Positions 24,587-59,945 of a stretch of 64,000 nucleotides of DNA are shown in pieces; the stretch's first letter is position 1, and every line of letters begins with the position of its first letter. Below the pieces are notes generated by a model, which was given only the letters and a program-made list of their open reading frames with translations, made no database searches and had not been told where the DNA came from. The stretch spans positions 93,115 through 157,114 of the forward strand of contig JBBQUR010000012.1 in assembly GCA_038212275.1 (NCBI GenBank), read 5' to 3'. The position numbers were made by a program, and so were the translations under genes. Source of the DNA: Planctomycetota bacterium. GTDB lineage: Bacteria; Planctomycetota; B15-G4.

Positions 24587-27500
24587 ATGTTCAAGCTGAT
24601 TTCAGTTTTGATGGCCGCTCTGCTCTGGATCTCTCCGGGGCTCCAGGCCCAGACGCCGGGCGCATATCCGCACCTCGTCCTGACGGACGGCCACGGAACA
24701 TCGATTCCGGGGCCGGGTGGCCCCTTCGACAACTCGGGGCTGTTTCCGGCCTTCTCGGGCTTGTCCTTCAAGGCTCAAGTGACCTACCAGTCGGCCGGGC
24801 AGCCGAACAGCAATGTTCTGTGGGGCCTCCTCGTGTCGGTGGCCAAGACTCCCCTGCCGCTCAATGTCACGCCTCCCTCCCTCCTGACGATGCCCCCCTT
24901 CATCCTGATGCTGCCGGTACCGCCCAACCTGAGCGGAGGGGGATTCGGCGAGATGCCGCTCTACGTGCCGGCGGGCGTGTATTCGGCGGAGACATACGTG
25001 CAGGGCATGGTGTACGACGTGACTTCGGCGCCGACGATGCGCCTCACGAACGGGCTCAAGGTCACGGTCGAGGTGCCCCAGTTCTCGGTGAACCTCGTGT
25101 TCACCCGCAGCAAGCCTGCCGGTGGCGATGGGCAACTCAAGGACGTGGGCGTCATCGACATCGATGCCGACACGCTGAACACGCTCAAGCCGATCGGCAC
25201 GAAGGCGCCACCCGAGGCTCTGCCGGGCCCTCCGCCGCTGGCAGATGACTACCGATTTCTCGCGATCCTTCCCAACGCCGGCGATGAACCAGTCAACCCG
25301 CTGGCGCGACCGATCACCCGCATCCAGGGAAGCGTCGCGTTCGATGCGACGACAATTCCCGTGAAGGACACTCGGTACTTTCCGACGACGGGCCGGATCC
25401 TGATCGCATTCTCGGCGGGCGATCCCGCACAGAACAACCTGTGGAAGTCCAAGGCGACCACGACCCTTGCGCCCAATGCCGAAGTCGTCAGTTACAACGG
25501 CACGACCCCCACGAGTTTCCTCAATTGCAAGCGCGCCCAGCTGGGTTCGAGGGGTTCCTCCGTTGCCGGAGGATTCTTCCACGTGAACGACGAGATGGTG
25601 GTGGGGTTCTTCACCATGGCGACCACGGTGGATGCCCGGTTGCGGACTCGCGTGGGACTTGACGCCGACAATCGTGACACTCCGCACGTTGTCGTCCCGC
25701 AATTCACCTTCGATGCAGGGGGCGACCTCGGAACGGTCACGCGCGATCTGGACATCTATCGCTACGAAACCCTCGCAAACAAGATCCAGGGTTTCATGGT
25801 GCTCGACCGCATCACGGGCTTGTGGCGCGCGATACCGGGCACGGCGAAGAATGAATTGGAAGGGCGGTGGGACCCGATGGTGGCCATCGCGCCGGATGGG
25901 CGCAGCATGATCGCGCACCTGGAAATTCCAGGCGGCCTGTTTGGCTGGGACAACAACCCGGATGGAATCGTGGCCATCCGCCTGGATGGGCTGAACTGGC
26001 CTGCCAGCGGCAGCGAGGCCTGGATGATTCCCTACCAGACGGATCCGGATCCCGTCAATTCCATCGTGAGCGATGTGCGCTCGCGTCGTGTCTGGATGCC
26101 TGCTGCGGCGATCATCGGAGCCAATCCGGACAACTACGTCGCGTACGTCGGACTTGCTCACAAGTGGAGGCTCAATCCCAACAGTCCGGGCAGTGGCAAC
26201 CTGCCTGACTTCGGATACGAGGCGGAGTACGTCGCTGAAGAGGTGATCGTCCGCGACATGATCGAGTGTCCGCTCACACCGCCCGCTTCGACAAAATCGG
26301 TGCCATCGATGCCGAGGCCTTATCTCACCGGCTCGTTCGGCAACAACGGACAGGGAGGCAAGATCATTCGCTTCGATCCTGACGTGCAGCGATTGGTCAA
26401 CAACACGCAGCTCCTGCTCACCGCAGGGGCCGCTGGGAGCAAGGAGGATGTGTTCGTCATTCGAAGCGTCTCGGTGGGGCAGGACGGGGCACCACACCAC
26501 TCGCTCGTGAATCTCTCCGGATTCACGCAAGCTCAGGAAAGCAACCTGCAGACGGATGTCCGGGCGTTCAGATCCGGCGGGCACGGCAACGGGCGGAAAG
26601 TCGCCGTGTCGCCTGACAATTCGCGTGTTGCGTGGGCCTTCAAGGACCGATTCAACACTGGCGACGAACGCCGCGATTGGCTCAACGTGGCGTCCACCAG
26701 CGGCTCGAGCTACAGCAAGATCAAACACGTCTACAAGAACGCCAACGAGCAGTTCAAGATTGCCGGGCCCCTTACGAATGACCGTGCGATCTGCGGCTTG
26801 CGCTTCATCGACAACACGCGTCTCATCTTCATGATGGGTCTGGACAGGTACGACGATCCCCTCGCCGTGAACTCCAGCAATGCTCCGCAGATGGACCTGT
26901 TTCTCTACGACACCACGACCGATGTCATCACCAATCTGACCAAGACCGGAAACGCGGCGGGCGACGGATTTTCGGCCTTGGGGCAGATGACTCCGGCCGG
27001 ATACTTCGCTGCTCCAGGAGGGGGTTTTGCCTACGTGATCCGGGCGGGAGGCATTGGTTCGGTTCAGTTCCCGAGCAGCCCCTCGCTATTCCTGACGCCA
27101 GGCACGGCTGTCACGAACATCATCGGCATCAACATGGCCACGCTGGACGTGTTCGCCGTGACCGGGACCGAGATCAGCGGATCTGCGCTCGTCCCGAATC
27201 TGACGCTCGCTTCGGGTGACTTGGCTGCCCCGTCGGAGACTGTTGCTTCGATGAACTTCGTCTCGGCAACTGGCGTGCAGGACGGGATCATCTATTTCAG
27301 CGCTCATCGGGCGGGAGGCAATGGATCGGATGACGTGTTCGCGCTTGATCGCGACAGTCCGTTCGTCACGTTCGGGGCAACCAGTGCGACCATGTCCGGC
27401 GTGCACGTCACCAACATCGCGCCCGACCCGTATGGCGGTCGCGTTGCCTTCGCCCGCACGGCAACAAGCGATGCATTCGGCCCGACGCAGCATCCGTACG

Positions 27501-27826
27501 TGGTGGATCTCGACAACTTCCTGTTCGAGCGTGATCTGCTGCCGAAGTATGTCTCCGGAGGCAATCCTCTCGGGCGCGTGATGGATGGCAGTTTTCATTT
27601 CATCGCGCCGACTGGAAGCGCTGGCGACGCATTCGTGTTTGCATTCGGTCTTATCGCACTGAACGGGGGAATTGCCGGTCTGGCCACGCCGGCCTACTAC
27701 CCCCTCGGCGCCGTGTCGGACCTGCTCGCCGAGCCGATCCCCGTGATCATTCCGCTGGTCGACACGTTTCTTCTCGGCCAGGACTTCCGGTTTTACATCG
27801 CCGCAGCAGGGCCGTCGAAGAACTGA
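24587..27826 (+). CDS. large secreted protein with PD40/WD40-like beta-propeller-type repeats
   Basis: Signal peptide MFKLISVLMAALLWISPGLQAQ (aa117 of ORF 24239..27826); repeated xAxxPDGxxxA segments (VAIAPDGRSMIA, AVSPDNSRVAWAF); visibly lower GC and more A/T-ending codons than flanking genes. Confidence 0.65.
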   Translation: MFKLISVLMAALLWISPGLQAQTPGAYPHLVLTDGHGTSIPGPGGPFDNSGLFPAFSGLSFKAQVTYQSAGQPNSNVLWGLLVSVAKTPLPLNVTPPSLLTMPPFILMLPVPPNLSGGGFGEMPLYVPAGVYSAETYVQGMVYDVTSAPTMRLTNGLKVTVEVPQFSVNLVFTRSKPAGGDGQLKDVGVIDIDADTLNTLKPIGTKAPPEALPGPPPLADDYRFLAILPNAGDEPVNPLARPITRIQGSVAFDATTIPVKDTRYFPTTGRILIAFSAGDPAQNNLWKSKATTTLAPNAEVVSYNGTTPTSFLNCKRAQLGSRGSSVAGGFFHVNDEMVVGFFTMATTVDARLRTRVGLDADNRDTPHVVVPQFTFDAGGDLGTVTRDLDIYRYETLANKIQGFMVLDRITGLWRAIPGTAKNELEGRWDPMVAIAPDGRSMIAHLEIPGGLFGWDNNPDGIVAIRLDGLNWPASGSEAWMIPYQTDPDPVNSIVSDVRSRRVWMPAAAIIGANPDNYVAYVGLAHKWRLNPNSPGSGNLPDFGYEAEYVAEEVIVRDMIECPLTPPASTKSVPSMPRPYLTGSFGNNGQGGKIIRFDPDVQRLVNNTQLLLTAGAAGSKEDVFVIRSVSVGQDGAPHHSLVNLSGFTQAQESNLQTDVRAFRSGGHGNGRKVAVSPDNSRVAWAFKDRFNTGDERRDWLNVASTSGSSYSKIKHVYKNANEQFKIAGPLTNDRAICGLRFIDNTRLIFMMGLDRYDDPLAVNSSNAPQMDLFLYDTTTDVITNLTKTGNAAGDGFSALGQMTPAGYFAAPGGGFAYVIRAGGIGSVQFPSSPSLFLTPGTAVTNIIGINMATLDVFAVTGTEISGSALVPNLTLASGDLAAPSETVASMNFVSATGVQDGIIYFSAHRAGGNGSDDVFALDRDSPFVTFGATSATMSGVHVTNIAPDPYGGRVAFARTATSDAFGPTQHPYVVDLDNFLFERDLLPKYVSGGNPLGRVMDGSFHFIAPTGSAGDAFVFAFGLIALNGGIAGLATPAYYPLGAVSDLLAEPIPVIIPLVDTFLLGQDFRFYIAAAGPSKN

Positions 27827-27841
27827 CGTGGCGGGGACCTG

Positions 27842-28609
27842 TTGAAGCGTCTCGATCCGTCAACGCTGGGCAAGGCGGACGTGCTGCTCGTTGCTCCCCA
27901 TCAGGATGACGAAGCACTCGGATGCGGCGGAACGGCTCACCTGCTGGTCCGCGCAGGTGCGCGAGTGCAGATCGTCATCGCCGCAAGTGGCGAAGGCGGA
28001 ATTGTCGGCGGCGTGTCGGCGGCGCAGCGTGAGGATGAGTCTCGTCGATGCTGCATGGTCCTTGGAACATTGCCACCGCTCTTCCTGCGCCAGCCGTCCG
28101 CAAGCTTGCGCGCAGATCCGTGGCAGGCGGGGAAGCTGCTGGAAGCGCTTGTCGGTCGCGAGTGTTGCGACGTGATGCTGGTACCTTCGCCGCTGGAGCG
28201 CCACGAGACTCATCGGGCTACGCTCGTCGCTGCGGCGTGTGCCGGTGTCGCCCGGCGCGACGGCCGCTGGTACGGGTACGGTGTCTGGGATGCCATACCG
28301 GCGTGGCCCGGCGTCATGGAAGTCGATATCACCTCGGCTCGAAGCGCCAAGACACAGGCCATTGCTGCGCATCACAGTCAGGTCTCCGGACGTGCGTTGG
28401 CAGCCGCCATGGCGGCTCGCGACATGGAACAGGCAGTCTTCGCCCGGATCACGGGGATCGAGGAACGCAGGGCCGTGGAGCGGCTCATGGAACTGCCGCT
28501 GCTGGCCGGTGGAGCAGCGCGCGACGTTCACGAGGCTCGGGCTCGCATCGCAGCCGGCCTCTCGGCCAATCTGGGTCTCTGGGCCGAATCGCTCTGGCCA
28601 TCCGCGTGA
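27842..28609 (+). CDS. PIG-L/LmbE-family N-acetylglucosaminyl deacetylase
   Basis: LLVAPHQDDEALGCGGT matches the LmbE-type motif (reference form xHPDDExxGxGGT, as I recall it); apparent TTG start at 27842 (start uncertain). Confidence 0.7.
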   Translation: MKRLDPSTLGKADVLLVAPHQDDEALGCGGTAHLLVRAGARVQIVIAASGEGGIVGGVSAAQREDESRRCCMVLGTLPPLFLRQPSASLRADPWQAGKLLEALVGRECCDVMLVPSPLERHETHRATLVAAACAGVARRDGRWYGYGVWDAIPAWPGVMEVDITSARSAKTQAIAAHHSQVSGRALAAAMAARDMEQAVFARITGIEERRAVERLMELPLLAGGAARDVHEARARIAAGLSANLGLWAESLWPSA

Positions 28610-28634: not shown

Positions 28635-29621
28635 TCAGCCGGATTCACCCGCCCGAGCCTGCTGATTGCGCTGTCCCGTGGCCCAGACCGCAAGCAGCAC
28701 GATCATCAACATGCCGACGAGAACGGGCGGGGAAAGCAGCGAAGCGAACAGACCTGTCCAGCCGACGGCCGCATCGGCTGCGCCGAGGGAATAGGCCGGC
28801 TGCGCATAAGATGCCAGGTCTGCGACTCGATCGATGAGCAGGGCGATGCGTCCGAGCACCGTGAATCCGAACATGCTGCCGAACGTGAGCATGAGCACGA
28901 CGATGCCAAGCCGCGACATGCCACCGAGCAACCTGTTGCGCCGGTAAGTGAAAATGAAGTGTGACAGCACGCAGATCAGGCCGACGAGGAAGACAAGGTT
29001 GGAGAGCAGCGAGAAGCCGATGCTGTTCTCGAATCGCACGCCATCGGTCCATGGAACCGCAGACGGCGATATCAGCGGGACCATGGTCTCCTTGATCTGG
29101 ATCACGAGCTTGCTCTGCGTCTCACCGGTCATCTTGATGGCGGCGTAGATCCCCACCATTGCGGCCAGCGGCCAGCGCGGAGCCCATGAGTCTCTGGAAA
29201 ACAGCCGTACGAGCAGCATCACCGAGAAGAGCAGCGCCACGCAGCGCAACGCGATGGCCAGGCCGGGCTGTACCTGAAAGCCTCCGAGGTCCACAAGCTG
29301 CAGGCCCGTGACGGCATCGGCGCCGGCGAGGAGCTGTTCGTTGGCCGCGAGCTTGTCGTGCGCCTGAATGATGTACTCGCGTACCGGGCCGAGGATCCCC
29401 GTCTCGTAATTCTCGAGCGTGTACCAGGCTGCACCGACGCCGACGAACAGGTGTTCAGCCAGCTTGTAAAACGGGTTGTCGCGATACAGGAAGCTGAACA
29501 CAGCAAGTGTGAGAAAGCACACGATCCAACCGCCGAGGATGTCCGGAGTGGCAGCAGTATCCAGTGAAAACCACGCTGGCGCGGTGGCTCCAGCGGAAGT
29601 CTGAAGCAGCAATGGAATCAC
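28635..29621 (-). CDS. polytopic membrane protein (cluster gene A), unknown function
   Basis: GTG start (aa27 of ORF 28635..29699) overlaps stop of gene B as GTGA; multiple hydrophobic helices. Confidence 0.55.
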   Translation of the reverse strand: MIPLLLQTSAGATAPAWFSLDTAATPDILGGWIVCFLTLAVFSFLYRDNPFYKLAEHLFVGVGAAWYTLENYETGILGPVREYIIQAHDKLAANEQLLAGADAVTGLQLVDLGGFQVQPGLAIALRCVALLFSVMLLVRLFSRDSWAPRWPLAAMVGIYAAIKMTGETQSKLVIQIKETMVPLISPSAVPWTDGVRFENSIGFSLLSNLVFLVGLICVLSHFIFTYRRNRLLGGMSRLGIVVLMLTFGSMFGFTVLGRIALLIDRVADLASYAQPAYSLGAADAAVGWTGLFASLLSPPVLVGMLMIVLLAVWATGQRNQQARAGESG

Positions 29622-30463
29622 CGGGTGGCCCTCCGCCTTCCGAGGAAGTACGCGACGTTTCCGAAGGCGATCAGTCCGATGATCAGCAGGTGTGACCATG
29701 ACTGGACCAGCATGCGCCGCTGATCCTCATCACGTTCTTCGTGCACGGCTTCAGTGGCTTCTCCGACGAGTTGCAGATACTGGGTGGCGCCGGTGAATGC
29801 ACCGAGGAATCCCTTGAGCTGGTTCGGGTAGTACGCAAAGAGCGCCGTCGTTTGAACCGCGGTCGTGCCACAGATCACCGGCACCTGGTACCGACCTCCG
29901 ACCTGTGCAATCCATTCGAGGATGCCGGGATATCCGGCAGAGGCCGAGACGAGCAGCGAGATGCCGCGAAAGCTGTCGCTCACATCCGCCAGGAGGGGAA
30001 TGTCCCGCAATGGTGAATGGTTGCGATCATCGGTGGAGTACGTGGACTTGAGCGACTGTCCGATGAGCCCCATGGCCACATCGTCGCCGGGCGTGTATCC
30101 GAGCTCCACCCAGTCGACTCCGTAGACCTTTCCGTACTGGGGTGCTATCTCGCTGAAGTACTTCTGAGTGAACGGCGGCGCTGCCGGCCAGGTTGCCACG
30201 TTGATGACACGCAGGTTGTGGCGCAGGAGATGGTGAATCGTCGCGATGTACATCGGCTCGATTTCGGCAGCGCTGGCCGGATCAAAGTCGGCGGAGAGCA
30301 TCACGATCGAGCCCTCGGGAAGGCTCTCGATTTCGTCGAAGTAGCTCTGGACATACTCGCTGACCGGGATCGTCTCGGTCTCACCGAGCGCGTACATCAC
30401 CACCACGACCAGACCCATGGCCAGGAAGATCCAGCGCCTGTCGATATCGAGCGGACTGGCCAT
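29618..30463 (-). CDS. membrane protein with N- and C-terminal TM helices and large intervening domain (cluster gene B)
   Basis: MASPLDIDRRWIFLAMGLVVVVMYAL ... HLLIIGLIAFGNVAYFLG; 3-nt gap to gene C stop. Confidence 0.55.
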   Translation of the reverse strand: MASPLDIDRRWIFLAMGLVVVVMYALGETETIPVSEYVQSYFDEIESLPEGSIVMLSADFDPASAAEIEPMYIATIHHLLRHNLRVINVATWPAAPPFTQKYFSEIAPQYGKVYGVDWVELGYTPGDDVAMGLIGQSLKSTYSTDDRNHSPLRDIPLLADVSDSFRGISLLVSASAGYPGILEWIAQVGGRYQVPVICGTTAVQTTALFAYYPNQLKGFLGAFTGATQYLQLVGEATEAVHEERDEDQRRMLVQSWSHLLIIGLIAFGNVAYFLGRRRATR

Positions 30464-30466
30464 GGA

Positions 30467-31297
30467 TTACTCCGACAGGTAACTGCGCTCGATGCCGAGC
30501 ACGATGCGCAGCCCGGTCGCGAGTCCACCGAGCGTGGCGCCGATGATGATCGCGCGCAGGCCCGCCTTGGTGACGTAGGTCATGAGAAAGGCCTGCGCGC
30601 GGCTGGCGTAGCCGCCAGTAAGTTCGTCGCCGATGGGGACTTGTCCGAGCATCACGATGCAGCCGGCGACCAGCAGGAGCGTGGCTTCGATCGACCGGGC
30701 GCGGAAGGCACGAAATGCCGCGGAGGCCACGTAGAACGCGAGCAGGCTGAACATCGTGGATTGCAGCGGGACGAAGAACTTGTTGTAGATCCAGAGCTTG
30801 AAGGTCGGCTCCGTGTCATTCGCGATCTCGGTGAGAAGGAAGGCCCTCGGTTCGAGCCCGGCGCCCGTGCGATATGTGGCGGTGACTTGCGTGCGCTCGA
30901 CCAGATACCCCTCGACCGAGCTGCCGTCGACGAAGGTGATCGTTCGTGCGGGCACCAGCAGCCGCAGCACGGAGGGAGGCAAGTCCTTGACATGGATCTC
31001 GGCAAGGCCGATCACGAGAAAGGCCGTCATGGAGACGAGCAGCACCGCCTTGTAGGCCCAGTCCTCATGCCGTGTCGCGATCTGCTTCAGGTTGATCCGG
31101 AAGAGGTTCGCGATTCCGAGAATGAACGCCACCGCGAACAGGATCTTTGCCCACTCGAGCAGTTCCGCGTTGACGGCCTGCCAGGGGGATGCCGGAACGG
31201 GGGGGATGGCAGTCGGATTCGAGGTCGGTGCGAAGAACGAGATCGTGATGAGCAGGCCGCACAGGACGGTGAGAAAAATGGGGATCTCGCGCTTCAC
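30467..31297 (-). CDS. polytopic membrane protein (cluster gene C)
   Basis: MKREIPIFLTVLCGLLITISFFAP plus several further hydrophobic segments. Confidence 0.55.
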   Translation of the reverse strand: MKREIPIFLTVLCGLLITISFFAPTSNPTAIPPVPASPWQAVNAELLEWAKILFAVAFILGIANLFRINLKQIATRHEDWAYKAVLLVSMTAFLVIGLAEIHVKDLPPSVLRLLVPARTITFVDGSSVEGYLVERTQVTATYRTGAGLEPRAFLLTEIANDTEPTFKLWIYNKFFVPLQSTMFSLLAFYVASAAFRAFRARSIEATLLLVAGCIVMLGQVPIGDELTGGYASRAQAFLMTYVTKAGLRAIIIGATLGGLATGLRIVLGIERSYLSE

Positions 31298-31303
31298 CGC
31301 AGG

Positions 31304-32203
31304 TCAGCCGAACAGTCGTTGGTAGAGCGCGAACAACTCCGCAGCCGTGCCGGGGTGGCTGCTGTCGCTGATGGTGGCCGCGTCCATTGCCGCGACGGTG
31401 GCGAGCCACACGCCGACGATGAAGAGTGCAGCGGCGAGCACCTTCGTGATGTCGCTCGCTCGAATCGTGCCTACGAGTCCCGGCTCGCGCGTCAGGTACG
31501 CGGTGACGGCGAAGTACTCCTCTCCCATGATCGTGTAGTCGCACGCGGCGACGAAGAACGGCAGCTGCTCGTACCGCGCCGTGCCTGCCAGCTGGATCGC
31601 GCCCGTGCCGTAGCCCGTCTCGGCGAGGATGAGCGACTCCGCGAAGAACATGCCCATCATCACGTTGGCCGCCGGCTTTTCGCGATTCATGATGCCCGCG
31701 ATGCCGGCGCAATACGCGAACTGCTCGTCGGAGAGGTAGCGCACGTTGTCCGGAATGAACGCGTCAGGGCGCCCTGCGTCGGCGCAGCCCTGCTTGACCG
31801 CCTCTTCCGCGAACGCGAGCACGACCGAGTTCTTGACCGGCACGATGATGGGTGTCCCGAACTCCGCCGCCTTGCGTGCGACGTGCCTCAGAATCATCAT
31901 CGAATAGATCGTCTGGATCTCCTTGATCTCGTCCGTGCCCGGCACGTACAGCACCGGCCTGCCCATCTCGGTGGCGCGACCGATGGCCTCGTCCAGCGCG
32001 TCGAGTCCGTTGATGCGCCGGATCTCGATCTTCTCGCCGCGGCGCGCGCGCCGTTGCTGGAAGAACATGATCGCGCCGAACGCCAGGATGGCCACGAGCG
32101 TCGGCAGCTTGTTGGTGGCGACCCAGGGGCCGAGGTCAAGCGCCCGCTCGTTGAGCCAGCGAGTGATTGCTTCGACCCATGTCGCGCCGGAAGAAACATC
32201 CAT
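31304..32203 (-). CDS. membrane-anchored protein with cytoplasmic domain (cluster gene D)
   Basis: One N-terminal and one C-terminal hydrophobic helix; start codon shares 1 nt with gene E stop. Confidence 0.55.
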   Translation of the reverse strand: MDVSSGATWVEAITRWLNERALDLGPWVATNKLPTLVAILAFGAIMFFQQRRARRGEKIEIRRINGLDALDEAIGRATEMGRPVLYVPGTDEIKEIQTIYSMMILRHVARKAAEFGTPIIVPVKNSVVLAFAEEAVKQGCADAGRPDAFIPDNVRYLSDEQFAYCAGIAGIMNREKPAANVMMGMFFAESLILAETGYGTGAIQLAGTARYEQLPFFVAACDYTIMGEEYFAVTAYLTREPGLVGTIRASDITKVLAAALFIVGVWLATVAAMDAATISDSSHPGTAAELFALYQRLFG

Positions 32204-33327
32204 CAGACGCGCTCGTCCACGAGTTCGACATTGGCGCGCGGGAGCGTGACCAGCTGTCCGCCCGGCAGCGTCACCGTGAGAATACGCACCTCGGCTTCGG
32301 TGTCCAGCTTGGCCGGCTCGGGTGGCAGGGCGGACACTTTGCCGATGGCGCCGAAATGCGGATCGCGAATGATGCGCACGACGCTCTGCAGCGCCAGGTT
32401 GCCGGTATCGACGGCAGTGACTTCGATGTGGCCAATGTCGGCGGGAATCAGCACTTCCGGGCGCAGCACCCCCGCGCGGATCTGCGTGGCGCCGCTCACG
32501 GAGGCAATGCGGCCTTCATTCGTCGAGAGCAGTCGATGCGTACGCGGCGACATGGCAAGCGGCCCGAATCCCTCGGTGACGACGACCGTCAGGCCGACGG
32601 TCTCCTGGCCGGTGATCGCAACGCCAAGGTCGAAGCCGAGCAGTCCCTTGAGGTCGGCCGCGTCGATCCCGCCGGTGATGAGCGCCGCGGCGCCGACTTC
32701 GATACAGCGGCGCAGGACGGCGAGATCCGCGAGTGCACCACCGATGAGCACCATGCCGCGATGCTCGGCCACGATGTCGTCGGGCTGAATCGGACGAGTC
32801 GGGTCGGTGCAGGCCACCTTGACCTGCCCATGCACCTCCGGGCCGATGCCGAAGATTCCCTGCACCATGGTGCCGCGCGCCGTCACTTCCACGCCGAATC
32901 CCTGCGTGACGCGGCTGATCCTGCCCGCGACGTAGGCTCTCACGTCGACAGGGACCGGCGCCTCGCGAAAGAGTGCCTGTCCGGACACCTTGCTCACGGA
33001 CTCGAGCACTCCGGCGGCAGGTGCGAAGGCGGTCTGTTTCATCAGGCCGAAGATGCCCTTGCTTCGTGCCACCGGCTGCTCTTTCGTCACCGTGCTGCCC
33101 TCCTTGACGAGGAGCAGCTCCGGGACGTCAGCGGGCACAACGCCGAGCGTGCGTGAGAGCGCCAGGCTGACGACGTGACCAGGCAGCAGCGCGCGAGCCA
33201 CCACGGTCTGTGGCTCTACCTGGTCCCCGACGCTTACCAGCACGTCGCCACGGATCGGCAGCAGGCGCGAGCGCACGTACTCCGCCGCAGCCGAAACCTT
33301 CAGTCTGGGAGTGTAGGCGTGGCCCAT
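32203..33327 (-). CDS. soluble protein with barrel-sandwich-hybrid-like N-terminal segment (cluster gene E)
   Basis: LLPIRGDVLVSVGDQVEPQTVVARAL resembles biotinyl/lipoyl-type hybrid motif; no further family recognised. Confidence 0.5.
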   Translation of the reverse strand: MGHAYTPRLKVSAAAEYVRSRLLPIRGDVLVSVGDQVEPQTVVARALLPGHVVSLALSRTLGVVPADVPELLLVKEGSTVTKEQPVARSKGIFGLMKQTAFAPAAGVLESVSKVSGQALFREAPVPVDVRAYVAGRISRVTQGFGVEVTARGTMVQGIFGIGPEVHGQVKVACTDPTRPIQPDDIVAEHRGMVLIGGALADLAVLRRCIEVGAAALITGGIDAADLKGLLGFDLGVAITGQETVGLTVVVTEGFGPLAMSPRTHRLLSTNEGRIASVSGATQIRAGVLRPEVLIPADIGHIEVTAVDTGNLALQSVVRIIRDPHFGAIGKVSALPPEPAKLDTEAEVRILTVTLPGGQLVTLPRANVELVDERV

Positions 33328-33339
33328 GAGTGCTCCTCT

Positions 33340-35304
33340 TCAGGCGTCCGACGTGGCGCGTGGCGGCACGTGCGGGGCCACTGCCGTGAGTGAGGTCGCG
33401 GACGCCTGGCGTGCTCCCGGGTACAGGTCCAGGGCATCGATCCAGGCGTCGATGGCCGCGACGCGTGCCGCTGCGGCTTGCGGCATGATGAGCGGGCGCC
33501 CGCGTCCGTCGAGGAGCAGGCCGACCTCTCCGCCCTCCAACTCCGTGTCGAGCGGCACGCCGGGACCCGCTCCCACGTCGATGCCGCGTGCGGGTTCAAT
33601 GCGGCACGCGACCCGGACGCCGCCCGCCAGCGGGATCCGCCCCAGCGTGCCCGCACCGATCGACAGGACTCGCCGGCCCTCAGGGAAGTCGATGGAGAGA
33701 CTCGCGAGCGGCCTTCCTCCCCTGGTCGTGCCGACCGGCGCGACGCACGTGCCGAGCATGATGAGGCAGTCGCGCTCGAAGACTGCGGTAGCCGCCTCGG
33801 GGTGCACGGTGGAGAGCACACCGAGCTGCGGCATCATGAAAATGCTGTCCACCGCAAGGCGCGTGACGCCAGCCGGTTCGAAAGAGTCCATGAGCATGAG
33901 AGCTGCCTGCACGCGACGCGGGGCGTGGCTCAGGACGCCGCCGCTGCCCACGAGCAGGTCCAGTCTCAGCATGTCGACGAGCGTGCTGCCGGAACCCTTC
34001 TGCGAGAAGGCCTCGGAGATGTCACGCGACTGGCGCAGGCCCTTCAACTCGGTCGCGAATTCCTTGTGCTGGATGAGCGACAACCGAAGCGCCTCGCGCG
34101 CGAGGGCCTGCTCGACCTGCAGATCGCGCAGCATCGACGGAATCGTGGTGGGGCGCACCATCTTGTTCTTGATGCGGTTGCGCAGCTCGCTCTCGTCGAT
34201 GTCGAACGGGACCCAGCGCAGCACGTTCTCGAGCCCGGTCTGGGCGAGCACGTTGCTGATCGAGTAGCTCATTCCGTAGTTGGCGGAGACTGTGCGGTTG
34301 AAGACGCCGTGGAAGACGGAAAACACGTCCGTAGTGGCTCCGCCGATGTCGACGCCCAGGACCGAAATGCCGCGCTGTCTTGCGATGGTCTGAATGATGA
34401 GGCCCACGGCGCCGGGCGTCGGCATGACGGGCGCCGAGGTCCAGGTCAGGAGCTTGTCGTAGCCGGGTGCCTGGGCCATGACGTGTTCCATGAACAGATC
34501 GTGGATCCGGTCGCGCGCCGGCGCGAGGTTTTCGTGCTCGAGCGTCGGTCGCAGGTTGTCCACTACCGACAATTCGGTCTTGGCGTCGAGCGCATCGCGC
34601 ACCGCCTGCACGGCATCCCTGTTCCCGGCATAGACCACCGGCAGGCGGTAGCTGGCGCCAAGGCGCGGTTTGGGATCGGCCGCGCCGATGAGCTCGGCCA
34701 ACTCCGCGACGTGGCTCACGGTGCCGCCGTCCACGCCGCCCGAGAGCAGGATCATGTCGGGACGAAGGTGGCGGATGCGCGCGATCTTCTCGTGCGGCTT
34801 GCGCGGGTCGTTGCTGCACAGCACGTCCATCACGATGGCGCCGGCGCCGAGAGCAGCCCGCTCGGCGGACTCGGCGGTCATCGTGCGCACCACGCCGGCG
34901 ACGAGCATCTGCAGGCCGCCGCCGGCGCTGCTCGTGGAGAGGTAGAGGTCCACGCCCTCGTCGCCGCGGCGAGGCGTGATGATGCGGCCGTCATCACCGA
35001 CCAGGCGTCGCCCGCAGAGTTCCTGAATCTCGGTCACGGCGTTGATGACCCCGACGGTGACGTCGTCGAAGGGCGTCTCGACGGTGGTGGGGGCTTCGCC
35101 GCGCACGGCCAGCCGGTAGCCCTCCGGCATCAATTCGATGAGGATCGCCTTCGTGGTGGTGCTGCCGCAGTCGGTCGCGAGGATCGACCGTATCGGTCCT
35201 CCATCCGCTGAACTCGGCTGCGCGACGCGCGGCACGGCGTCGGCCGTGGAGGCGGCGGCATGCGGGGCCGCGTGCCCTCCGGCGGAGACTTTCCCGCGAC
35301 TCAC
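33340..35304 (-). CDS. ASKHA/actin-fold ATPase, GlmL/MutL (EutA-like) family, with long C-terminal extension (cluster gene F)
   Basis: Phosphate-1 ILATDCGSTTTKAILI and phosphate-2 LGVDIGGATTDVF motifs; GTG at 35304 placed 1 nt after the stop of gene G (start uncertain). Confidence 0.65.
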   Translation of the reverse strand: MSRGKVSAGGHAAPHAAASTADAVPRVAQPSSADGGPIRSILATDCGSTTTKAILIELMPEGYRLAVRGEAPTTVETPFDDVTVGVINAVTEIQELCGRRLVGDDGRIITPRRGDEGVDLYLSTSSAGGGLQMLVAGVVRTMTAESAERAALGAGAIVMDVLCSNDPRKPHEKIARIRHLRPDMILLSGGVDGGTVSHVAELAELIGAADPKPRLGASYRLPVVYAGNRDAVQAVRDALDAKTELSVVDNLRPTLEHENLAPARDRIHDLFMEHVMAQAPGYDKLLTWTSAPVMPTPGAVGLIIQTIARQRGISVLGVDIGGATTDVFSVFHGVFNRTVSANYGMSYSISNVLAQTGLENVLRWVPFDIDESELRNRIKNKMVRPTTIPSMLRDLQVEQALAREALRLSLIQHKEFATELKGLRQSRDISEAFSQKGSGSTLVDMLRLDLLVGSGGVLSHAPRRVQAALMLMDSFEPAGVTRLAVDSIFMMPQLGVLSTVHPEAATAVFERDCLIMLGTCVAPVGTTRGGRPLASLSIDFPEGRRVLSIGAGTLGRIPLAGGVRVACRIEPARGIDVGAGPGVPLDTELEGGEVGLLLDGRGRPLIMPQAAAARVAAIDAWIDALDLYPGARQASATSLTAVAPHVPPRATSDA

Positions 35305-35305
35305 G

Positions 35306-35602
35306 TCAGTTCTCCTGATGAGTTTTCCGGCGCCGGTGTTCACCCTCGGCCTCATCGATGATGCGGATGAACTCGGGAATGGCCTCGCGACGTTCGAGCA
35401 GCCGCGCCAGTTCGTCGATTCGCGTCGCCGGAATCCCGGCGCGCCAGACAGGGGACACCACGTGCAGCATCGAGGCCGTGACGAGGTTCATGGGAGACAC
35501 CGTTTCAAGCAGCATCATGGCCGGGACCGCAAGCCTCCTCGCGACGATCGAACGGGCGGCCTCCTCCATGAGGGTCCTCTCCCGTTCCGAAAACTGACTC
35601 AT
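35306..35602 (-). CDS. small soluble protein (98 aa) (cluster gene G)
   Basis: MSQFSERERTLMEEAARSIVARRL...; ATG overlaps stop of gene H (ATGA); coding-like GC3. Confidence 0.45.
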   Translation of the reverse strand: MSQFSERERTLMEEAARSIVARRLAVPAMMLLETVSPMNLVTASMLHVVSPVWRAGIPATRIDELARLLERREAIPEFIRIIDEAEGEHRRRKTHQEN

Positions 35603-36057
35603 GCGACCCGTCGGTTCCGGATGTAAGTCGACACCTGCGCGGCGAGTTCGCTCCGTTGGTCGGTGCGCAGAAAGAGGCCCCGATCCCTGACCCAGCGCGA
35701 GGGCCGGTGCAGCGGCGACAGGTGCACGCCGTGGCGTTCCTGCGTGACGGCCCGAAGCTCGGTCCAGGCCAGCCGGCGCGGAGCCTGCAGAGGGCCATGC
35801 TCCATGGCACCCATGGCATCGAGCTCGTAGGTGCGCGGCAGGAACCAGGCTCGCAGGCTGCCGAACAGCAGCAGGGCGGCCAGGCTGGCGCTGCCGACCG
35901 AACCCGACACCGAGTAGACCAGGACGGAGGCCAGTCCCAAGGTTGCCAGGATCGCGAGCGTGCGCAGCGGCTGTGCTGCAGCCGGATGCACGGTCCAGCG
36001 CAGTGCGGCCTCTGCCCCGGTGGCGGGCTCGGTGGTGGTCTCGAAGGGTGCCAGCAT
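35599..36057 (-). CDS. membrane protein with TM hairpin and PH-like domain (cluster gene H, first gene)
   Basis: RTLAILATLGLASVLVYSVSGSVGSASLAALLLFGSL then globular C-terminus; 60-bp divergent spacer to GT2 gene. Confidence 0.5.
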   Translation of the reverse strand: MLAPFETTTEPATGAEAALRWTVHPAAAQPLRTLAILATLGLASVLVYSVSGSVGSASLAALLLFGSLRAWFLPRTYELDAMGAMEHGPLQAPRRLAWTELRAVTQERHGVHLSPLHRPSRWVRDRGLFLRTDQRSELAAQVSTYIRNRRVA

Positions 36058-36117
36058 GCGGTTCGCATCCTAACCGCGCGGCTTGCATGGGCGCGACCTG
36101 CGCCCGATCATGGGCGA

Positions 36118-36891
36118 GTGCCGCTCTCGGTCTGCATCATCACGCTGGACGAGCACGAGAATCTGCCGCGCTGTCTCGCAAGCGTGGCAGGGCTTGCCAC
36201 TCAGCTCGTGGTGGTGGACAGCCATTCGAGCGATGACACGCAACGGATCGCGCGCGAAGCCGGAGCGACCGTCATCGAGCGTGACTTCAAGGGGCACGTG
36301 GACCAGAAGTCCTTCGCGCTCGCGCAGGCCAGCGAGGACTGGGTGCTCTGCCTCGATGCGGACGAGTGGCTGGACGACACGCTGCGTGCCGAGGTGCAAC
36401 GCCTCATCCGAGGCGAACTGAAGGACGTCGCGGACGGATATCAGCTCAACCGGCGCACCGAGTACCTGGGGGCCTGGATCGACCACTGCGGGTGGTCACC
36501 CGAGTGGAGGCTTCGACTCGTTCGCCGCGGGACCGCCGCCTGGGTTGGCGACGACCCGCACGATCGCCTGGAGGGGCGGGGGCCTGTCGGCAGGCTCGCC
36601 GGGCGACTCTGCCACAGACCCTACCGGAGCCTTGGCGAGCACCTTGCCAAGGTCAACCGGTACACGGACACCATGGCCGCCGCCCGTCACGCCGCGGGCG
36701 AACGCTGCTCGATCGCCCGGCTGCTCCTCCGGCCGGCAGGCCGTTTCGGGCGCATGTACGTCCTGCAGGCCGGCTTCGTGGATGGCTGGCGCGGCCTGGT
36801 CGTGTGCGCGATGGGGTCGTTCTACGTGTTTCTCAAGTACGCGAAGCTCCGCGCACTCTCCGACGCCGGCGCGCCGCCGCCTGCGCGCTGA
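36118..36891 (+). CDS. family-2 glycosyltransferase
   Basis: VPLSVCIITLDEHENLPRCLASV ... VVDSHSSDDT ... CLDADEW (DxD) typical GT2; GTG start at 36118. Confidence 0.75.
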   Translation: MPLSVCIITLDEHENLPRCLASVAGLATQLVVVDSHSSDDTQRIAREAGATVIERDFKGHVDQKSFALAQASEDWVLCLDADEWLDDTLRAEVQRLIRGELKDVADGYQLNRRTEYLGAWIDHCGWSPEWRLRLVRRGTAAWVGDDPHDRLEGRGPVGRLAGRLCHRPYRSLGEHLAKVNRYTDTMAAARHAAGERCSIARLLLRPAGRFGRMYVLQAGFVDGWRGLVVCAMGSFYVFLKYAKLRALSDAGAPPPAR

Positions 36892-37179
36892 CTCGCGGCT
36901 CGAAACGTAGAGCGCAGGCGACCGTTCCGGAACGCCTCGTCGGGGGCGAGAGTCAGCGAGACTTCGTGCCGCCGGGCCAACGGCAGGATTCCGCGCCTTC
37001 GGTCCGTACCGGATTTGCCCTCTCCGGAATCCGGGCCTCTCCCCCGCAGCCTCATTCGCGGGGTACACTTCCCGGCTCACTTGACCTCATCAAGAGATCT
37101 GGTCGATAGACGCTGCCGACGCCCTACCCGATTCATGTCGCTGCGCCAGACCGGGTCCTTACCTCTGGAGTTTCCTTCC

Positions 37180-38706
37180 ATGAAGTCCGTTTCGCTCGCA
37201 CTCGGTTCCCTTGCGTTGGCGCTTGCTGCGCAATCGACGCCTGCACAACTCATTTCCCAGACCGCTGAGTTCGGTGCGTTCTACACAGACGACGCGTCGG
37301 GCCTCAATGTCGGGGTCAACCTCGATCTGGCCAGCGGTCCGATGTACTTCCTGCTCGCATCGTTCGATGGCTTTCAGTCGCTGCCGGCCCTGCTCGGTCC
37401 CTATGCGCTGACTCCGGATGGCAGCGCGCTGTTTCTTGCCAATGTCGATCCCGCGATCGCGGCTCTGCTGCCCGAGCAGTTCAAGATCGACTTCCGGCCG
37501 CTTTACGCCGGCGGGAGCGGCGTCACCACCACACAGGCCGCTTCGATCATCCTGAATGACGACGGTTGCGAGGCACTCAACTTCAACTTCAAGGCCGGCG
37601 GAGCTCCGACGACCGCCGGTGAAGTCGTGAACACGCAGTGGGCCCCGATCGGCCTGCTCATCTCCGGCGAGAGCCAGCTCATTACGCAGCCGAACAAGGT
37701 CATCGTGTTCGACACGGCCAATCCGACCGGCGGGGACGACGACCTCATGACCCCGGGCCCCGGTCCGGGCAACACGGTCGCGCTCGGCAACATCCTGATC
37801 CTGGCCGAGAACGACGTGGATGCGAACAACGACGGCATCGTGGACGACCCCGATGACGCGTTCAACGGCGGCCTGATGCACTTCAACTTCGACCAGCCGC
37901 AGACGATGTGCTCCGTGACGTTCGTGGACGTCGACGACGTGGATCCGGGCCAGGGCATCACCCGTTGCCGCTTCTACGCGGACAACGCCGGCACGATCTT
38001 CCTCGGCTCGATCATCTGCCCGCCCGGCCCGGACAACAACGTGAAGACGCTCTACTTCAACGTCGAGAACGTGCGCCGCATGGACGTGAAGTTCGGTGGA
38101 TCAGGCGGGCTCGGGCTCGTCAGCTACTGCCCGACGTGCATCAACTTCGACGAGACCAGCAAGGACATCCCGCTGAACTACCCGGCCGGCACGATCATCA
38201 CCAACCAGTTCGCCAACCTGGGCTTCAACGTGTCCGCGGTGAACAAGAACGGCGGCTACATGCCGGCCGTGATCTTCGACTCGGCCAACCCGACCGGTGG
38301 TGACACCGATCTGGCGACGCCCGGTTACGGCTTCGGCAACAACGTCGCCGAGGGCAAGATCCTGATCATCCAGGAGCACAACGTCGACGCGAACAACGAC
38401 GGGTTGATCGACGATCCGGACGACAACGCCGACGGTGGCAACATGTTCTTCGACTTCGACTTCGACGTGCACGTCGACAACCTGACCTTCATCGACGTGG
38501 ACGGCCTCGAGATGTCGTGGGTGCAGGGCATCGATTCGAACAACCAGATCGTGGGCACCGTCAACCTCGCGAACCTGGGTGACAACTCGCGTCAGACCAT
38601 CAACATCGACCTCGACAACGTGCGCCGGTTCAAGGTGCACTTCGGCGGGTCCGGTTCGGTGGCCGGCTTCTGCTTCTGCTCGAACCCGCCGAACGACAAC
38701 CAGTAA
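37180..38706 (+). CDS. secreted protein with internally duplicated ~150-aa Asp-rich domain
   Basis: Signal peptide MKSVSLALGSLALALAAQ; two copies of FDxANPTGGDxDL...ILIxxENDVDANNDGxxDDPDD...FxFD...VRRxxVxFGGSG; lower GC than neighbours. Confidence 0.65.
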   Translation: MKSVSLALGSLALALAAQSTPAQLISQTAEFGAFYTDDASGLNVGVNLDLASGPMYFLLASFDGFQSLPALLGPYALTPDGSALFLANVDPAIAALLPEQFKIDFRPLYAGGSGVTTTQAASIILNDDGCEALNFNFKAGGAPTTAGEVVNTQWAPIGLLISGESQLITQPNKVIVFDTANPTGGDDDLMTPGPGPGNTVALGNILILAENDVDANNDGIVDDPDDAFNGGLMHFNFDQPQTMCSVTFVDVDDVDPGQGITRCRFYADNAGTIFLGSIICPPGPDNNVKTLYFNVENVRRMDVKFGGSGGLGLVSYCPTCINFDETSKDIPLNYPAGTIITNQFANLGFNVSAVNKNGGYMPAVIFDSANPTGGDTDLATPGYGFGNNVAEGKILIIQEHNVDANNDGLIDDPDDNADGGNMFFDFDFDVHVDNLTFIDVDGLEMSWVQGIDSNNQIVGTVNLANLGDNSRQTINIDLDNVRRFKVHFGGSGSVAGFCFCSNPPNDNQ

Positions 38707-42187: not shown

Positions 42188-42359
42188 GGGGAGGGGCACG
42201 AGCGAAGGTCCGCCCGCACGCTTTGCAGCCTCACGCCCGGCGCGCGTGCCGATCGCCTTGTGCCGCGCGGGATGCGCCTGTCCCGCGGCCTGGGCGCCCG
42301 GCCGGCGATCCTCGTGGCCAGCGCCCGGGGATCCGCCGCTCGGGCTGCGCCTGGTCACG

Positions 42360-42494
42360 CTACTTGGCGAGTTCCCGTCGGCCTGCGGCCCGGCGGCGAC
42401 GGACGACCTTGCGCCCGCCACGCGTCTTCATGCGCGTGCGAAAACCGACCTTGCGGCGGCGCTTGGTGTTGCTGTTGCGCACCTTCGTGTGCAT
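42360..42494 (-). CDS. rpmH: 50S ribosomal protein L34
   Basis: MHTKVRNSNTKRRRKVGFRTRMKTRGGRKVVRRRRAAGRRELAK, 44 aa, canonical L34 pattern (GFRxRM). Confidence 0.85.
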   Translation of the reverse strand: MHTKVRNSNTKRRRKVGFRTRMKTRGGRKVVRRRRAAGRRELAK

Positions 42495-59861: not shown

Positions 59862-59945
59862 TGGTGCGAGGAGGGGGAGTCGAACCCCCACGGATTGCTC
59901 CACCGGATCCTAAGTCCGGCGCGTCTGCCGTTCCGCCACCCTCGC
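59862..59945 (-). tRNA. tRNA-Leu (anticodon UAG), class II, CCA encoded
   Basis: Reverse complement GCGAGGGUGGCGGAACGGCAGACGCGCCGGACUUAGGAUCCGG...GGGGGUUCGACUCCCCCUCCUCGCACCA; 7-bp acceptor stem pairs, anticodon loop CUUAGGA, long variable arm, T-loop UUCGACU; near-identical layout to E. coli tRNA-Leu. Confidence 0.8.

Follow-up and report, generated by a model that had tools for sequence, protein, structure and literature searches.

What does an ATPase of the MutL/GlmL type do when it is encoded among membrane proteins? This question is raised by eight minus-strand genes, H-G-F-E-D-C-B-A (28635-36057), in a 64,000-nucleotide stretch of a Planctomycetota contig, hereafter the window. All eight ORFs of the initial annotation are present at these coordinates, and their start codons, stop codons and tight packing check out, with junctions that range from -4 to +12 nt (H>G -4, ATGA; G>F +1; F>E +12; E>D -1; D>C +6; C>B +3; B>A -4, GTGA) and are those of translational coupling. 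The absence of a B12-mutase partner also stands, as a scan of genes between 18 and 49 kb of the window turned up neither a B12 mutase nor a B12-binding gene. The GC content is 65.6% in the cluster vs. 69.7% in the remaining window; this confirms the modest dip noticed earlier but not its distinctness, since neighbouring genes between 23 and 39 kb share the lower GC (GC3 77-88%), and the dip is neither a signal nor a sign of foreign origin.

The proposal of one coupled gene set is borne out by recurrence of the same order across phyla. A check of neighbourhood conservation recovered H-G-F-E-D-C-B-A in nine Planctomycetota genomes and one unassigned MAG, G-F-E-D-C-B-A in an Elusimicrobiaceae MAG, and the cluster order in Fermentibacteria-like and many unassigned metagenome contigs. 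E also retrieved 80 metagenome loci, dozens of which show this order. Environmental genomes that carry the system number in the thousands and represent about ten phyla. Of the 51 loci with at least 2.5 kb of sequence upstream of E, 41 have F beside E; D occurs in 33 of the 60 loci with at least 1.5 kb downstream of E, and no gene fusions among A-H occur in about 120 loci.

These loci also revealed a modular organization. D-C-B-A often occurs without F or E within 10 kb: in WOR-3, TA06 and Stahlbacteria it is solitary, and Armatimonadota carry it as H-G-D-C-B-A. Where both are present, F-E is in places separated from D-C-B-A by unrelated genes or several kb, and in Candidatus Sabulitectum H-G-F-E lies ~5 kb apart from D-C-B-A. 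Two to three tandem D-C-B-A copies follow one H-G-F-E set in loci L061, L066, L081 and L093, and E is also found without F or D nearby, for example in WOR-3 after a TMEM260-like glycosyltransferase. Because D-C-B-A occurs with no F or E nearby and is multiplied behind a single H-G-F-E, this most widespread module is the core of the system, while F-E and H-G are separable accessory modules; the earlier view of a cluster built around the ATPase does not hold.

The inner-membrane core comprises two bitopic (D, B) and two polytopic (C, A) proteins, whose annotated topologies agree with hydropathy and whose lengths of 299, 276, 281 and 328 aa, respectively, are also encoded on an identical Logan contig. 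D (31304-32203, minus strand), the first gene product of the module, belongs to the Pfam family DUF6754 (4e-105) and consists of an N-terminal TM segment, a Rossmann/USP-like alpha/beta domain and a C-terminal TM segment. Its loops are very strongly conserved (GLDA.DEA.GRATEMGRP..YVPG and AESL.LAETG..GAIQ.AGT...QLPFF..CDYTIMGEE), with 38 columns invariant across phyla; the Rossmann/USP-like fold match is generic, and the model has low confidence in the segment where conservation is highest. Since an fn3 domain and a signal peptide occur at the N-terminus of D in other phyla, the DUF6754 domain is probably cytoplasmic. B (29618-30463, minus strand) has a similar layout of two TM segments enclosing a conserved alpha/beta-type domain of ~225 aa, with invariant residues P70, D145, V203, G218 and A226 in an alignment of 27 orthologues. 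This domain is predicted to be periplasmic from the Arg clusters that flank both TMs, following the positive-inside rule. None of the 120 B homologues listed carries a Pfam domain, and a profile search of the PDB with B was empty. Comparison ruled out B as a paralogue of D, and likewise C as a paralogue of A.

C (30467-31297, minus strand) contains at least five and about six TM segments by hydropathy, with conserved motifs PLQATMFSLLAFY.ASAAFRAFRAR and LGIER.YL (24 orthologues aligned) and a lineage-specific insertion of ~60 aa between TM3 and TM4 (residues ~100-165). A (28635-29621, minus strand) has 5-6 core TM segments by hydropathy and the motifs LTLA..SFLY.DNPFYK.AEH and FG..FG.TV..R..LL..R (23 orthologues aligned); relative to the ~210-aa form of other phyla, that of Planctomycetota gains a loop and a further TM segment at the C-terminus. 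Like B, neither C nor A has a family; Pfam and NCBIfam gave no match for C or A, nor any likeness to known ion-coupled transporters. The initial annotation had placed A-E and G outside any characterised family; no member is indeed characterised, although D sits in a named family.

F (33340-35304, minus strand; 654 aa) is the ATPase. Translated from the GTG start at 35304, its product is identical to a protein on record in public collections. The assignment as a MutL/GlmL-type ASKHA ATPase was upheld, with residues 41-513 matching the Pfam MutL profile PF13941 over positions 1-450 of 450 (E = 6.9e-124) and the phosphate-1 and phosphate-2 motifs, ATDCGSTTTKA and GVDIGGATTDVFSV, invariant among 58 orthologues. 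F shares both features with GlmL, associated with glutamate (methylaspartate) mutase, and Or-4 of ornithine fermentation (NF040745, NF040744, TIGR01319). Unlike these proteins, it scores below all three curated NCBIfam cut-offs (GlmL 214 vs. 475 bits, Or-4 198 vs. 600, glmL_fam 147 vs. 204), is never found beside mutase subunits, and is linked to E and D-C-B-A. It also differs by an additional C-terminal domain (about 120-140 aa), conserved and specific to its family, within an extension that measures ~140 aa beyond the MutL profile (514-654, conserved to ~630) rather than the ~250 aa reported earlier. Hydropathy shows no TM segment in F, and sequence searches with the whole protein or the C-terminal profile identified no solved homologue.

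E (32203-33327, minus strand; 374 aa), the usual partner of F, is a soluble protein with at least 7996 homologues and ~45-50% identity across environments; its single borderline hydropathy window (191-209, score 1.51) lies within a folded alpha/beta domain. A confident fold model divides E into a barrel-sandwich hybrid (~10-125), a swivelling beta/beta/alpha domain (~125-300) and a KOW/SH3-like domain (~315-370), with ranges assigned from secondary structure and aligned lengths. The first of these, suspected from the sequence beforehand, matches BCCP (2d5d; 7.7), NqrA and RnfC, and the last matches the KOW domains of Spt5 and NusG (7.5-8.2). The same barrel-sandwich fold is found in the N-terminal domains of NqrA and RnfC and in biotinyl/lipoyl carriers of the BCCP and GcvH type, but E lacks the Fe-S and flavin modules of the former and the canonical modification motifs of the latter, and its membrane partners are unrelated to Nqr and Rnf subunits. 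The swivelling domain, with conserved motifs QGIFGIG.E, TEGFG and GATQIRAGV.RPE, is of a type shared with the large subunit of diol dehydratase reactivase and with PEP-utilising enzymes (PTS enzyme I, PEP synthase/PPDK, rifampin phosphotransferase and the C-terminal domain of Bacillus pyruvate kinase). PEP-utilising enzymes carry the motif G-G-x-T-S-H; E has GATQIRAG at this position, and neither a PEP-binding nor an ATP-grasp domain is present. As the swivelling domain of E contains no invariant histidine, it is not a phospho-histidine carrier.

The third part of the system is a pair of small proteins, H (35599-36057, minus strand; 152 aa) and G (35306-35602, minus strand; 98 aa). In Planctomycetota and Armatimonadota, as at many metagenome loci, H precedes G. 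As annotated, H is a membrane protein, with a hydrophobic stretch of ~30 residues (34-63) that forms a hairpin or one to two TMs, and G has no predicted TM. The soluble C-terminal domain of H, for which the PH-like fold of the initial annotation is putative, carries the motif SL..FFLP..Y.LD...GV.LSPF..SRL..RG, and its conserved core is retained in 36 orthologues; in G, the motif TVPA..FLES..PLNF.GSQ.L.F..P precedes a charged tail (53 orthologues). Neither protein has a match in Pfam, NCBIfam, PADLOC or PHROGs. For the system as a whole, these databases and PDB sequence and fold searches returned no described counterpart, no Rfam element, riboswitch, defence family or phage family explained it, and literature searches for DUF6754 and PF13941 yielded no explaining paper. 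The system thus appears to be undescribed, as first proposed.

We tentatively favour, with a probability of roughly 40%, a modular inner-membrane machine served by an ATP-dependent, reactivase-like F-E accessory module, whose role is most likely substrate transport across, or handling at, the inner membrane, or envelope biogenesis. Because F is a MutL ASKHA ATPase and E folds with a swivelling domain, F plus E resembles a split version of the diol dehydratase reactivase large subunit. The pair shares its design of an actin-fold ATPase plus swivelling domain with the DdrA-DdrB reactivase of diol and glycerol dehydratases and the related EutA of ethanolamine ammonia-lyase. It differs from DdrA in that the two functions reside on separate polypeptides and that barrel-sandwich and KOW domains are added in E; no sequence-level homology to DdrA was detected, and the pair would presumably act on an integral membrane complex instead of a soluble B12 enzyme. 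With the D domain in the cytoplasm and the B domain in the periplasm, as topology predicts, ATP binding and hydrolysis in F would move the swivelling domain of E, which may dock onto the highly conserved cytoplasmic loops of D. Docking could then trigger a conformational switch or reset of the D-C-A transmembrane bundle and, through the bundle, act on the periplasmic B domain. Several paralogous D-C-B-A units, up to three at the loci above, could share a single H-G-F-E set. By analogy only, this recalls ECF transporters and the PTS, whose general proteins work with several EII complexes: one energising module serves several membrane units, and the soluble ATPase module is separable from the membrane module. 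However, none of the eight proteins resembles ABC/ECF or PTS EII components by sequence or fold, and the ATPase is of the ASKHA rather than the ABC type.

The strongest competitor, which we consider possible but distinctly less probable, regards D-C-B-A as a transporter or channel that works by itself on an ion gradient, with F-E and H-G as a maintenance, assembly or regulatory chaperone that repairs or gates it instead of powering every cycle. The core may indeed not need the ATPase, given how often F and E are missing within 10 kb, and both its solitary occurrence in many phyla and its physical separation from F-E are consistent with this arrangement. The nearest mechanistic analogues of F-E (GlmL, DdrA and EutA) are accessory or repair factors, and B12-enzyme reactivases repair rather than catalyse; to our knowledge, GlmL has no demonstrated biochemical function. 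Against this, the conservation of F and E ranks with the highest in the system, an unusual trait for accessories that can be dispensed with, the genes canonically form one tightly coupled operon, and C and A do not resemble known ion-coupled transporters.

In a second alternative, an unlikely one, the system is a membrane-bound metabolic "swinging-arm" enzyme complex with a link to glycine cleavage or carboxylation: E would be a carrier that shuttles an intermediate by means of its lipoyl/biotinyl-like barrel-sandwich domain and its swivelling domain, F the ATP-dependent activating enzyme, and D-C-B-A the coupling of the chemistry to the membrane. The genes gcvT-gcvH-gcvPA-gcvPB lie directly upstream of H with a stop/start overlap in nine metagenome loci and in loci L040 and L041, which span at least three E clades with ~52% mutual identity, but the linkage is absent from the window and from about half of the loci having upstream sequence. 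Similarly, accA occurs two genes after E in seven E-only loci, all of a single clade. Beyond the eight genes themselves, the recurrent neighbours of the 36 + 80 related loci include no family conserved across phyla; the glycine-cleavage genes, in a subset of loci, are the one consistent metabolic neighbour, and the operon conserves neither a carboxyltransferase nor any further catalytic subunit. In Pfam, E weakly matches Biotin_lipoyl and RnfC_N, some sources name it "biotin carboxyl carrier protein", and near-invariant K90 and K97 fall in the hairpin region that bears the modified lysine in biotinyl/lipoyl domains. However, inspection of the sequence found neither the biotinylation (A/V-M-K-M) nor the lipoylation (D-K-A) motif in E, the hairpin is ~6 residues longer than in those domains, and the swivelling domain offers no invariant His. 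The weak Hydantoinase_A match of F in Pfam, and its relation to the hydantoinase/acetone-carboxylase branch, would fit an activating enzyme. Irrespective of this alternative, glycine-cleavage genes upstream in three deep clades provide one lead to what the system acts on.

It is improbable that F is instead a polymerising actin-like protein and the operon a membrane-anchored cytoskeletal or divisome-like scaffold, even though its ASKHA fold, intact nucleotide motifs, very high conservation and adjacent membrane partners would suit such a role. Faint matches of F to MreB-like_C (E 0.029) and a phage partition protein family (E 0.005) are restricted to the common phosphate-2 region. Descriptions in Pfam and TIGRFAM connect the MutL family, of which F is part, with the hydantoinase branch, and we know of no polymer-forming member of this family. 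F is also missing near D-C-B-A in many phyla, and its constant partner E has mobile domains of the enzyme or reactivase type rather than filament-binding ones; the modelled fold of E suits a conformational switch of the reactivase kind better than a filament.

Finally, the notion that F is an ordinary GlmL-type reactivating or accessory protein for a B12 mutase encoded elsewhere, incidentally placed among membrane genes, is close to refuted: its full-length MutL match and best NCBIfam hits to GlmL and Or-4 are outweighed by scores far under the curated cut-offs, by the lack of mutase and B12-binding genes in the scanned part of the window and among the recurrent neighbour families of the 36 + 80 loci, and by an F-E-D-C-B-A linkage that is conserved across phyla.

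All eight open reading frames that the initial annotation had proposed are present on the minus strand of the window (28635–36057), in the transcription order H-G-F-E-D-C-B-A, and the tight packing it described was reproduced, with junctions from H to A of −4, +1, +12, −1, +6, +3, and −4 nt. The F product, read from a GTG at 35304, is 654 aa long and is an exact entry in public protein collections, and D, C, B, and A have the same lengths in a second, identical assembly. HMM searches with all eight proteins against Pfam, NCBIfam, PADLOC, and PHROGs, suggested by the same annotation, assigned F to the MutL family and D to DUF6754 and otherwise returned sub-threshold matches. F aligns over the complete Pfam MutL profile (PF13941; positions 1–450 of 450, 414.5 bits against a cut-off of 27, E = 6.9e-124) and D matches Pfam DUF6754 at 351 bits (cut-off 27, 4e-105); H, G, E, C, B, and A have nothing above threshold in the four collections. 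No ABC ATPase or PTS EIIA/B/C component was matched by any of the eight in Pfam or NCBIfam, none matched an anti-phage defence family in PADLOC, and PHROGs gave a single, faint match, with F (E 0.005). Searches of the PDB by sequence and by profile with B, D, E, F, and the C-terminal domain of F were empty apart from the fn3 extension that D carries in other phyla, and none of F, E, D, and B has a solved relative detectable from its sequence. A is unrelated to C and B to D, and gene fusions among A–H were absent from approximately 120 loci. Homologues of D (at least 5850) and E (at least 7996) are labelled in databases as hypothetical, DUF6754, or now and then “biotin carboxyl carrier protein”, and literature searches for “DUF6754”, “PF13941”, or GlmL-related phrases found no relevant paper. 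Five of the eight proteins belong to families without even a DUF number.

F contains the ASKHA phosphate-1 (DxGxT) and phosphate-2 (DxGGxT) motifs as ATDCGSTTTKA and GVDIGGATTDVFSV, both invariant in 58 orthologues, and on these conserved motifs it is classed as a putative ASKHA ATPase with predicted hydrolytic activity. Its best NCBIfam matches are GlmL (NF040745; 214.3 bits against a cut-off of 475) and Or-4 of the ornithine pathway (197.9 bits against a cut-off of 600), and TIGR01319 (glmL_fam) is likewise not reached (147.1 bits against 204.05). Because F falls far below the curated GlmL and Or-4 cut-offs, we consider it a distinct subfamily. The C-terminal extension, initially put at roughly 250 aa, is shorter: the conserved stretch past the Pfam profile spans 120–140 residues in the 58 orthologues, follows the pattern GTCVAP.G ... 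GG.VG.ILDGRGRP ... W..AL..YP, and has no detectable relative in the PDB.

E is a 374-aa soluble protein with three domains, a barrel-sandwich hybrid, a swivelling domain, and a KOW/SH3 domain, whose limits (~10–125, 125–300, and 315–370) were placed from secondary structure and aligned lengths. Fold matches to the first are BCCP (7.7), NqrA (7.9), and RnfC (7.7), and those to the last are Spt5, NusG, and NdhS (7.2–8.2). The first domain has the barrel-sandwich-hybrid fold of biotinyl/lipoyl carrier proteins. Its hairpin is longer than theirs, reads A-x-S-K90-G-I-F-G-x-M/F-K97 with K90 and K97 near-invariant, and lacks at its tip the canonical modified-lysine motif (A/V-M-K-M/L or D-K-A/V). No histidine occurs among the invariant columns of the swivelling domain in sets of 13 and 60 E sequences, and the domain is therefore not a phospho-carrier of the PEP-utilising type.

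Hydropathy analysis agrees with the membrane topology assigned earlier: H has one hydrophobic hairpin of ~30 residues, a transmembrane segment (TM) lies near each terminus of D and of B, and the polytopic members are C and A. Neither G nor F has a hydrophobic segment, and the only borderline window in E lies within a folded domain. D is 66–80% identical to proteins from Planctomycetota and Phycisphaerales MAGs. In other phyla D begins with a signal peptide and an fn3 domain, an arrangement that places the DUF6754 domain in the cytoplasm. D is also a candidate for a universal stress protein (USP) nucleotide-binding domain, which is marked by the USP fold and the ATP-binding motif G-x2-G-x9-G-[ST]; its conserved loops span residues 60–90 and 185–230. 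Arginine clusters beside both TMs of B would make its alpha/beta domain (~225 aa) periplasmic. In C, ~60 aa are inserted between TM3 and TM4 (residues ~100–165, window 30800–31000); only the C proteins of the two nearest Planctomycetota loci (L001 and L002) share this insertion, and all other orthologues lack it. A, too, has a loop specific to Planctomycetota, as well as an additional C-terminal TM.

The gene neighbourhood is conserved, the A–H order recurring across phyla. A genome scan with D recovered 36 loci, which were annotated with profile HMMs built from orthologues. Within this set, nine Planctomycetota genomes and one unassigned MAG have the full H-G-F-E-D-C-B-A order, and an Elusimicrobiaceae MAG has G-F-E-D-C-B-A. 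One further MAG shows F-E ahead of a tandem pair of D-C-B-A sets, three Armatimonadota MAGs have H-G-D-C-B-A with neither F nor E, and D-C-B-A stands by itself in MAGs of WOR-3, TA06, Stahlbacteria, and relatives. Scanning metagenomes with an E profile added 80 loci (E 41–51% identical to that of the window), again with H-G-F-E-D-C-B-A as the canonical order; of the 51 loci with at least 2.5 kb of sequence upstream of E, 41 contain F, and of the 60 with at least 1.5 kb downstream of it, 33 contain D. In L061, L081, L066, and L093 a single H-G-F-E precedes two or three D-C-B-A sets in tandem. In Candidatus Sabulitectum H-G-F-E and D-C-B-A lie ~5 kb apart on one contig. At some loci unrelated genes interrupt the G–F or the F–E junction, and the inserted or upstream genes are heterogeneous (HD domain, RCC1, DJ-1, M15 peptidase, SIR2, ABC permeases, S41 peptidase, and others); no additional neighbour family is kept across phyla in the 36 genome and 80 metagenome loci. 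These architectures indicate a modular system and revise the initial picture of a cluster built around the ATPase: the core is D-C-B-A, from which the soluble F-E pair and the membrane H-G pair are separable. We are highly confident that the eight genes form one conserved, modular, membrane-associated system.

D-C-B-A duplicated or triplicated beside a single-copy H-G-F-E was also seen in L055, L073, L011, L012, and L014. D occurs without a following C-B-A in L017 (6998–10765, unassigned MAG) and L020 (4992–8704, Ignavibacteria MAG), where it comes, with translational coupling, after ptsI (PTS enzyme I, an enzyme that shares the swivelling fold of E) and a gene for a PGI-like SIS-domain protein, and in L036 (Zixibacteria MAG) D lies at 7652–8518 with no C-B-A nearby. 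E lacks F or D nearby in L078, L088, L102, L103, L108, L112, and L115 and in L038 and L039; the first seven of these, all from one clade, have accA (acetyl-CoA carboxylase carboxyltransferase alpha) as the second gene downstream of E, and in the other two, both WOR-3 MAGs, the stop codon overlapped by E is that of a gene for a 1058-aa TMEM260-like/TPR protein of glycosyltransferase type. Defence-type genes lie near D-C-B-A in two unrelated MAGs (L022, 6344–9566, and L017, 13310–15004), with a PRTase, a BrxC/BrxD-like ATPase, and an ADP-ribosylglycohydrolase in one and GmrSD in the other. A defence-island interpretation of these two loci was rejected in view of the lack of a PADLOC match, the deep conservation, and the housekeeping-type synteny.

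In DdrAB, the reactivase uses ATP, swaps onto a Rossmann-like client subunit, and forces a conformational change. F, contributing the ATPase, and E, contributing the swivelling domain, may reproduce the DdrA design in trans, and from there on we infer the mechanism by analogy. Since the cytoplasmic domain of D is the only conserved Rossmann-like candidate client, we propose that F-E acts on D. D, anchored by two TMs, would sit in a unit whose other members are two polytopic proteins and one that faces the periplasm; F-E would be an ATP-dependent conformational switch on D whose action drives or resets the D-C-B-A unit, and a single F-E set could serve several D-C-B-A paralogues. We put the probability of this model as a whole at roughly 40%. 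The most parsimonious guess at its role is transport or envelope biogenesis.

The many loci with D-C-B-A only are consistent with a self-sufficient core that F-E merely maintains or regulates, an alternative that we regard as on balance unlikely. Less likely again is a swinging-arm metabolic complex tied to glycine cleavage or carboxylation, for which the main support comes from gcvT-gcvH-gcvPA-gcvPB placed directly upstream of H-G-F-E in nine metagenome loci and in L040 and L041, with the gcvPB stop overlapping the H start. These loci cover at least three E clades that are mutually only ~52% identical, and the BCCP-like domain of E with its conserved lysines fits the same idea, but a conserved catalytic partner and the modification motifs are both absent. 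In the window itself no gcv gene precedes H, and a divergent GT2 gene occupies that position. The gcv-linked loci include L040 (3001–11128), L042, L053, L060, L064, L068, L075, L082, L090, and L091. An actin-like filament scaffold appears quite improbable: F matches MreB-like_C only below threshold (15.4 bits against a cut-off of 27.8) and only in the phosphate-2 region, the E domains look enzymatic rather than structural, and we know of no polymer-forming member of the MutL family. That F is an ordinary helper of a B12 mutase is barely credible, as it is contradicted by the family cut-offs and by all neighbourhoods examined: as initially noted for this locus, no mutase partner is found among the scanned window genes (18–49 kb), GlmS/GlmE or another B12-dependent mutase is not a recurrent neighbour in the 36 genome or 80 metagenome loci, and, unlike for DdrA/EutA-type reactivases, the coenzyme-B12-dependent client is absent from the neighbourhoods.

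The ties of this system to known biology are at the superfamily or fold level only, and we therefore rate it as new in kind, although its function could be that of a new transporter of an ordinary substrate. It is large, deeply conserved, and well delimited, with a testable mechanistic hypothesis and with hosts mostly from uncultured lineages. More tentatively, and with considerable doubt, H-G-F-E with D-C-B-A might constitute a previously unrecognised class of ATP-powered inner-membrane machine in which a split, reactivase-like ASKHA ATPase (F together with E) energises or resets interchangeable four-protein membrane units, possibly tied to glycine metabolism. Such a machine would define a new superfamily of transporters or envelope-biogenesis systems, common in Planctomycetota and in many phyla that are largely uncultivated (WOR-3, Fermentibacteria, Zixibacteria, Elusimicrobia, Armatimonadota, and others) that are abundant in sediments, soils, and waters and whose cell biology is poorly understood, and thousands of “hypothetical” proteins (DUF6754 and four unnamed families) would gain a shared functional context. 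If the proposed switch on D is right, MutL/GlmL ATPases, which have been discussed only as presumed B12-mutase helpers and for which sequence searches detect no solved structure, would have their commonest and best-conserved use with a membrane complex. The combination of an ASKHA ATPase with a three-domain “mobile” adaptor and a four-subunit membrane unit that can be multiplied makes a concrete, testable design, in which a periplasmic domain might be coupled to cytoplasmic ATP hydrolysis with no ABC, AAA+, or P-type ATPase involved. Should the system prove to be a transporter of a common substrate confined to some lineages, a large DUF would still be retired and the MutL family redefined.

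Promoter and terminator scans of the region gave the same counts as shuffled sequence, and no riboswitch or other RNA element was found upstream of the operon in the window or in seven related loci. The window has a GC content of 69%. The lower GC initially attributed to the cluster is real, but the dip is small (65.6% vs. 69.7%) and reaches into the flanking genes (23–39 kb), with GC3 at 77–88%; since GC3 is native-like and the dip is shared by the flanks, a foreign origin by horizontal transfer was rejected. The cluster is flanked by a PIG-L deacetylase (27842–28609, plus strand) and by a family-2 glycosyltransferase divergent from H (~36083–36891, plus strand), and a PMT_2 (GT-C) glycosyltransferase lies at 38811–40142 on the minus strand. 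These glycan- or envelope-type genes, together with the Wzc-like GNVR/ParA protein that follows A in the WOR-3 locus L022, give a weak hint of an envelope-glycan theme. Encoded 4 kb upstream of the cluster is a radical SAM protein of the YgiQ type (Radical_SAM_N and DUF3362; 40175–42421, minus strand), and the sole Rfam match in the window is a single tRNA gene (59865–59945, minus strand). Two large plus-strand genes without any Pfam family (24590–27826 and 37015–38706) adjoin the cluster within the same lower-GC stretch, and one of them, encoding 563 aa, has an internally repeated acidic motif, DANNDG..DDPDD, whose sequence suggests a duplicated calcium-binding-like module.
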